Assembly (NCBI RefSeq): GCF_003334255.1
Contig: NZ_QOWU01000086.1
DNA length: 9,929 bases
From: Escherichia coli
GTDB lineage: Bacteria; Pseudomonadota; Gammaproteobacteria; Enterobacterales; Enterobacteriaceae
Reading direction: 5' to 3' (one strand)
In this document: in pieces, positions 1 to 264 of the stretch
Numbering within the stretch: the first letter of the stretch is position 1
Layout of the letters: each line of letters starts with the position of its first letter
Made by a program: the position numbers and the translations under genes
The notes under the pieces: model-generated
The model's database searches: none
Told to the model about the DNA's origin: nothing
The model's input: the letters and a program-made list of their open reading frames with translations, nothing else

Positions 1-22
1 AGCTGATAGAAACAGAAGCCAC
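1..22 (-). CDS. insA: IS1 InsA, first 7 codons only (GTG start at 22..20, continues beyond window)
   Basis: On the minus strand GTG GCT TCT GTT TCT ATC AGC translates to (M)ASVSIS, the known InsA N-terminus, positioned as expected relative to the IS1 inverted repeat. Confidence 0.6.
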
Positions 23-77
23 TGGAGCACCTCAAAAACACCATCATACACTAAATCAGTAAGTTGGCAGCATCACC
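1..77 (-). mobile_element. IS1 insertion sequence, left terminal portion (IRL end); rest of the element lies beyond the window start
   Basis: The reverse complement of 1..77 reads GGTGATGCTGCCAACTTACTGATTTAGTGTATGATGGTGTTTTTGAGGTGCTCCAGTGGCTTCTGTTTCTATCAGCT, which matches my recollection of the IS1 left inverted repeat and the start of insA over the whole length. The element abuts yehA sequence at position 78. Matched from memory, not by alignment. Confidence 0.85.
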
Positions 78-264
78 TAGTATTTGTACTCACGCATGAC
101 GAATCATTAAAATTATGCTCATATGTCGCCATTTGTGTTTGAGTAAGTGCAAAATCCCCCTGAACAACCAAGTTGTGCTGAACAGATAACTCACTATAAC
201 ATGCCGCATAGCTCACAGGCATAACCATCATCATTAATATAAATAGCATTATGCGAATTTCCAT
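78..264 (-). pseudogene. yehA: yehA fimbrial adhesin-like protein, 5' fragment (about 62 codons) interrupted by IS1
   Basis: ATG at 264..262 with AGGTGG Shine-Dalgarno upstream, 15 nt after the yehB stop. The N-terminus MEIRIMLFILMMMVMPVSYAA is signal-peptide-like. The apparent TGA stop at 75..73 is the TGA inside the IS1 terminal repeat (GG-TGA-TG), so the ORF end is created by the insertion. Intact YehA is about 344 aa as I recall. Confidence 0.75.

Follow-up and report, generated by a model that had tools for sequence, protein, structure and literature searches.

The 9,929-nucleotide (nt) window analysed here, the whole of an Escherichia coli stretch from contig NZ_QOWU01000086.1, begins inside a copy of the insertion sequence (IS) IS1, whose left end cuts off the fimbrial gene yehA after its nt 187. 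We put the probability that this reflects insertion of an IS1A element, truncating yehA, at about 0.9. What the element is, where exactly it joins yehA, how the gene is truncated and that the genes upstream of it are intact can all be read directly in the window. Reverse-complemented, window 1..77 (minus strand) is GGTGATGCTGCCAACTTACTGATTTAGTGTATGATGGTGTTTTTGAGGTGCTCCAGTGGCTTCTGTTTCTATCAGCT, which agrees at 77/77 positions with the start (nt 1-77) of the IS1A element, 768 bp long, in E. coli G1/2, a match that rules out chance similarity to IS1. Its outermost 23 bp, which we take to be the extent of the IS1 inverted repeat, form the left inverted repeat (IRL), and a GTG at IS1 nt 56, about 55 nt inside the left end, is the annotated start of the IS1 transposase coding sequence (CDS) in G1/2; codons for ASVSIS follow, and seven insA codons lie within the window, as does 10% of the element. 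In two other contigs with the same junction (L004 and L007), the IS1 match is prolonged to 117 and 125 nt with 0 mismatches. An earlier note on this DNA had claimed that the minus strand of 1..77 is the left terminal repeat of IS1 and the start of insA, and the alignment bears this out. The other 9,852 nt of the window are ~100% identical to E. coli G1/2, G6/7 and G8 (CP060083, CP060061 and CP060057), human faecal isolates from Germany, an IS421 insertion included.

On the minus strand, yehA starts with the ATG at 264, and its nt 1-187 are collinear with the intact yehA of ETEC1703 (1 single-nucleotide polymorphism, SNP) and identical to both the yehA of AREA_C483 (WP_000405696.1) and the gene reconstructed from G1/2, while from nt 188 onward all bases are those of IS1. 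The open reading frame (ORF; 264..73) comprises 63 codons and a stop; its last three codons are ACT, which is native, AGG (Arg), of which A is native and GG is IS1 nt 1-2, and TGA, which is IS1 nt 3-5 (window 75..73). Translation would thus run through 62 native codons and the hybrid Arg codon to the TGA in the IRL, giving a product of 63 amino acids (aa) against 344 aa for the intact protein. In intact YehA, the PF00419 fimbrial (pilin) domain spans residues 184-344 (E = 2e-23, Pfam), and it is absent from the 63-aa ORF. From what is established on chaperone-usher assembly, a subunit requires its pilin domain for chaperone binding and polymerisation; on this ground the truncated product cannot be a fimbrial subunit, and the allele is null. 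What the window contains is a truncated pseudogene that has lost the remaining, presumably receptor-binding, part of the N-terminal half together with the entire C-terminal pilin domain. The reading that yehA stops naturally at this TGA and resembles IS1 incidentally is excluded, given that intact yehA has 282 more codons in otherwise identical references and that the next 77 nt after the break are 100% IS1; we found no point in its favour. The claim of the earlier note that the yehA frame ends at a TGA inside the IS1 repeat is therefore upheld, and the comparison with an uninterrupted gene that it had proposed gives the same answer: collinearity over nt 1-187, then IS1, where the intact gene runs on to 344 aa.

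It is very improbable that the first 77 bases are an assembly artefact, in which a contig end was misjoined to a repeat and yehA is intact in the organism. The window, flanked by 77 nt of one IS and 75-76 nt of IS421, does look like a typical short-read contig bounded by repeats, and probably is such a contig in its entirety, but contig ends that run into a repeat are also the expected product of a real IS junction. Moreover, at least 23 contigs in public assemblies of short reads and metagenomes encode the 63-aa product, one of these contigs being common to 17 samples, and 9 of the 10 contigs that we retrieved carry the identical IRL junction followed by 27-125 nt of perfect IS1 up to the contig end; the tenth (L006) has the other IS1 end at the same site. 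The assemblies behind the junction contigs differ in sample and assembler (MEGAHIT k119 and k127, scaffolds, Logan), ERR271233 and SRR8506106 being among the junction-bearing isolates, and over 0.9-9.8 kb of flank there are 0-7 SNPs relative to the window. All 10 end 23-125 nt inside IS1, and a contig break inside IS1 in every case points to a real lineage allele, one that always breaks assemblies. We conclude that the nt-187 junction is a real allele of a closely related strain group and not an assembly artefact.

A 50-nt junction query (25 + 25 nt, with the word required to span the junction) matched none of 5,426 complete E. coli genomes in full, its best matches being unrelated IS1 junctions near cysB/ymiA, and the opposite-orientation junction at the same site was likewise absent from the complete E. 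coli genomes. The suggestion that the insertion is strain-diagnostic therefore holds in part: the DNA junction is lineage-specific (0/5,426 complete genomes, present in closely related contigs), whereas the insertion position and the 63-aa protein are not, as L006 represents an independent hit with the same product.

The kind of event that produced the junction can be stated less firmly than the junction itself. Where the earlier note spoke of an insertion, the IS1 junction and the truncation of yehA stand, and the event type has to be deduced from one junction only. In our reading, an IS1A-type element would have transposed into the AT-rich 5' part of yehA, with its IRL abutting nt 187 and insA co-oriented with yehA. 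The probable course is a simple transposition that duplicated 8-9 bp of target and left the remainder of yehA on the far side of the element. PMC12428005, citing Grindley 1978, gives the IS1 target duplication as 8-9 bp. A simple insertion predicts an IS1 right end ...GGAGTCATTACC followed by CAAATACTA and TCACCCCTATGAG (yehA nt 188 onward, TCACCCC...), or, in reads, ...AAGTTGGAGTCATTACC + CAAATACTA + TCACCCCTATGAGCCCGTCGG; past the 768-bp element one would thus meet CAAATACTA (or 8 of its bases) and then TCACCCCTATGAGCC... of yehA. In its support, the fully resolved IS1 insertions elsewhere in yehA (G1/2 and L73) are simple and have a 9-bp duplication, the yehA fragments of L73 measuring 813 + 231 = 1035 + 9 nt, and the independent L006 hit at the same nucleotide argues that the nt-187 site is a usable IS1 target.

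Several points weigh against this reading. The window holds one IS1 junction only, and look-ups of exact predicted products found none for the G1/2 allele with a 9-bp duplication and a 28-30 or 25-27 nt IS1 tail, none for the VL40 allele with a 9-bp duplication and none with an 8-bp duplication and a 26-28 nt tail, such look-ups requiring a full-length exact match that a single amino-acid difference defeats. The G1/2-type left-junction product is on record in 68 blocks, so that the approach as such works. Among contigs with a C-terminal ORF starting at Met66, no IS1 tail was seen at nt 179, the contexts being intact or frameshifted genes, contigs starting at nt 194/195, or positions beside an IS1 site at ~nt 80. 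As to function, the Yeh operon is cryptic in laboratory strains (PMC3559732), and the adhesin function of YehA is putative; the loss of function of the Yeh fimbria is a prediction. Three further searches were negative: exact-product look-ups for the opposite orientation found none; leftward extension through contigs with the 63-aa product did not reach the other junction, as all end inside IS1; and a pattern scan of JGI metagenome contigs for the IS1 right end, an 8-13 bp duplication and yehA nt 188 onward gave 0 matches, a result that is uninformative because the positive control (the known junction) also gave 0 and the collection lacks this lineage.

Alternatively, an IS1-mediated deletion or rearrangement may have produced the junction as one of its ends, through an adjacent deletion from an IS1 deeper in yehA (G1/2-like, nt 508), IS1-IS1 recombination or inversion. 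The 3' portion of yehA would then be partly or wholly missing or lie elsewhere, without a target duplication, and the IS1 right end would be joined to yehA elsewhere, such as at TAAATAGCTATAGAAATG (the G1/2 site), or to an unrelated locus. The near-identical G1/2, G6/7 and G8 do carry a same-orientation IS1 321 bp further into yehA, these genomes carry IS1 in 20-40 places, one contig (L010) has a second same-orientation IS1 2.6 kb away in yehB, and the left junction predicted by simple insertion was not found in the exact-product look-ups, although these negatives are weak in that they need exact products. On the other hand, the G1/2-type left and right junctions occur in 68 and 75 blocks, respectively, with no left surplus and hence no visible reuse, the nt-187 junction is also present on haplotypes without the IS421 insertion (L004 and L005), and the independent IS1 hit at the same nucleotide shows a direct target. 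We therefore regard a rearrangement as unlikely, if not negligibly so, and adjacent deletion from the G1/2 insertion in particular as unsupported, given that left junctions are not in excess over right ones. A small remaining share of the probability falls to other structures. Under simple insertion, rearrangement or any of these, yehA is truncated as described above.

The L006 contig (Logan ERR7225323_273, positions 8297..8320) breaks after the same base of yehA (...CAAATACTA) and continues with GGTAATGACTCCAACTTACTGATAGTGT, an IS1 end of the right-end type (right inverted repeat, IRR) that matches IS1A at 27/28 positions in the orientation opposite to that of the window. There, GGTAA supplies Arg and then the stop TAA, so that the same 63-aa product results, which is why the contig was retrieved by product look-up. 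Its flank shows roughly 90 differences from the window in 3.4 kb (~2.7% divergent), and this divergent background makes it an independent event. Assuming uniform use of about 19 known sites in 1,035 nt, the chance that some pair of sites coincides is about 171/1035, roughly 15%, which is not rare. In intact yehA, the target is adjoined by ATCACC (nt 187-192; L014 2996..3001), the only place in the gene where the hexamer at the tip of the IS1 left end occurs, an observation made post hoc that we record only as a lead, be it cue or coincidence. It is a tentative and rather doubtful idea that yehA nt 179-187 (CAAATACTA) is a sequence-directed IS1 hot spot, one that IS1 has entered in either orientation on two or more independent occasions and that abuts ATCACC. 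Galas, Calos and Miller reportedly described in 1980 that hot spots of IS1/Tn9 resemble IS1 ends, reports that such a hot spot, if true, would echo.

IS1 has entered yehA many times. Roughly 75 of the 5,426 complete genomes have IS1 in this gene, in both orientations and spread over 17 or more positions besides that of the window. In the same orientation as in the window, 60 complete genomes have an IS1 left end at most 550 nt downstream of the nt-187 position, and same-orientation insertions follow about nt 427, 493, 501, 508, 517, 605, 661, 673, 765 and 813, the nt 605 site being that of sequence type (ST) 131, with at least 23 genomes (23 among the matches listed). A chimeric query with the right IS1 end added ~16 genomes with the opposite orientation, at about nt 287, 573, 667, 682, 756, 797 and 821. 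A further IS1 site near yehA nt 80 was seen in a Logan contig (L037, 1..26), and counting it there are at least 18 IS1 positions in yehA besides nt 187. IS1 prefers AT-rich DNA, and the G+C content of yehA, 39% (37% in the retained part) against about 50% in the flanks, fits this preference. We make no statistical claim that yehA is a hot-spot gene, as the genomes are non-independent and the gene is probably dispensable.

Judging from its reading frames, yehA is also inactivated by small mutations near the IS1 site. A CCCC run (yehA nt 191-194) just past the insertion point is CCC in some genomes (L030 ~1490-1500), other disruptions of the N-terminal part leave ORFs of 48, 57 or 65 aa followed by an ORF starting at Met66, and L016-L018 and L038, contigs assembled from different samples, begin at yehA nt 194/195. 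Polymorphism is also far higher in the 3' two-thirds of yehA than in the flanking genes (L014 2153..3187 versus L027 and L028): G1/2 shows 20 differences from ETEC1703 and 7 from VL40, on backgrounds that are 99.2-99.9% identical; the polymorphisms include amino-acid changes in the pilin domain.

The remaining genes of the locus are complete (Table 1). The synteny from the rcnB side is yehA-yehB-yehC-yehD-yehE-apbC-metG, in the order of the RefSeq annotation of ETEC1703, AREA_C483 and VL40, with a full-length yehE (93 aa) in the window; rcnB itself lies beyond the window, and its position, next after yehA and convergent with it, is taken from the reference genomes. Because yehA is last in its unit and convergent with rcnB, IS1 would have no polar effect on other genes, and we rejected polarity on downstream genes on this ground. 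A Yeh fimbria, if expressed, would be without its putative adhesin, with yehD, yehC and yehB intact. In the annotation, yehA is a putative fimbrial-like adhesin gene, at the distal end of the Stc-like Yeh chaperone-usher operon, and synteny, annotation and junction all agree with the earlier description of yehA as the IS1-disrupted distal gene of yehDCBA. A perfect hairpin (AAAGCCGAAATCATTTA/TAAATGATTTCGGCTTT; window 4296..4335, minus strand) lies about 30 nt past the yehE stop and leads into a T run; it resembles an intrinsic terminator between yehE and yehDCBA. This strong hairpin is in keeping with a yehDCBA unit, as is an AT-rich stretch upstream of yehD. Two Logan contigs (L008 and L009) start within the palindrome, and an Rfam scan of the window found nothing. 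In L010 (1..25; Logan ERR13324808_72904), at ~window 2686, a second IS1 with the right-end tail CTATCAATAAGTTGGAGTCATTACC lies inside yehB; it has the orientation of the yehA IS1, and the two direct copies bracket a 2.6-kb yehB'-yehA' segment.

Table 1. Positions in the window of the IS1 end, the disrupted yehA and the intact genes of the unit.
Feature	Position	Strand	Basis
IS1A-type left end, IS1 nt 1-77	1..77	-	77/77 to G1/2 IS1; element interior at window start
IS1 IRL, GGTGATGCTGCCAACTTACTGAT	55..77	-	Read directly from sequence; exact match
insA 5' end: GTG start 22..20, codons 1-7 (MASVSIS) and one base	1..22	-	G1/2 CDS start
Truncated yehA' ORF: 62 native codons, AGG and TGA	73..264	-	ORF reading, alignment to intact yehA
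Native part of yehA (nt 1-187), coding for the signal peptide and about 41 mature residues	78..264	-	187/187 to G1/2 (reconstructed) and AREA_C483
Predicted 9-bp target: TAGTATTTG on the plus strand, CAAATACTA in yehA sense	78..86	.	Deduced from the 8-9 bp rule and the G1/2 duplication
yehB, fimbrial usher, intact, 826 aa	280..2760	-	Pfam PapC_N/Usher/PapC_C on identical gene
yehC, periplasmic chaperone, intact, 224 aa	2776..3450	-	
yehD, fimbrial subunit, first gene of unit, intact, 180 aa	3530..4072	-	

At the other edge, window 9854..9929 consists of the terminal 75-76 nt of IS421 (IS4 family), with the inverted repeat CATAAGCGCTAACTTAAGGGTTG. It cuts the large WGR/DUF4132 gene downstream of metG (8324..9853) to an ORF of 513 codons; the gene is uninterrupted, with 1,141 aa, in L004 and L005. 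In ETEC1703, IS421 measures ~1.34 kb and is flanked by a ~10 bp duplication, AGTAGTCTCC.

The element, the gene, the event type and the presence of IS1 in yehA are all already known, and the case is one of ordinary disruption by IS1 of a cryptic, non-essential fimbrial gene; this particular site alone is missing from complete reference genomes. For annotation, the operon should be marked as disrupted and the 63-aa ORF should not be called a protein, and the IS1-yehA junction can mark a related E. coli group that so far has no complete reference genome. Beyond annotation and typing, its importance is small. More generally, yehA is repeatedly hit, with IS1 at 19 or more positions besides frameshift alleles, and is apparently dispensable. 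Yeh fimbriae have been classed as 'core-associated' and cryptic, and as intact in 92% of surveyed strains (Wurpel et al. 2013, PMC3559732), and recurrent disruption of yehA fits weak selection on such core-associated, cryptic fimbriae in many lineages.

Compared with classical IS1 (IS1A/IS1R type, 768 bp, of E. coli and Shigella), the terminal 77 nt, comprising the IRL and the insA start, are identical here; the complete 768-bp element also has a right inverted repeat and the insA/insB' frameshift arrangement, whereas the window begins at IS1 nt 77. Close counterparts are G1/2, G6/7 and G8, which like the window have IS1A in yehA with the same IS1 sequence and orientation, but after yehA nt 508, 321 bp further in than nt 187; in G1/2, a 9-bp duplication, TAAATAGCT, was verified and the two yehA fragments are both present, whereas the window shows one side only. 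Among intragenic IS1 insertions, one within yehA has been reported for ST131 (EC958 and relatives; Alvarez-Fraga et al. 2022, mBio, PMC8764528). There too, the IRL faces the 5' part of yehA and the orientation is the same, the annotation giving the gene as a partial 'putative fimbrial-like adhesin protein', but IS1 lies 418 bp further in (about nt 605 versus nt 187) and the host lineage is another one.
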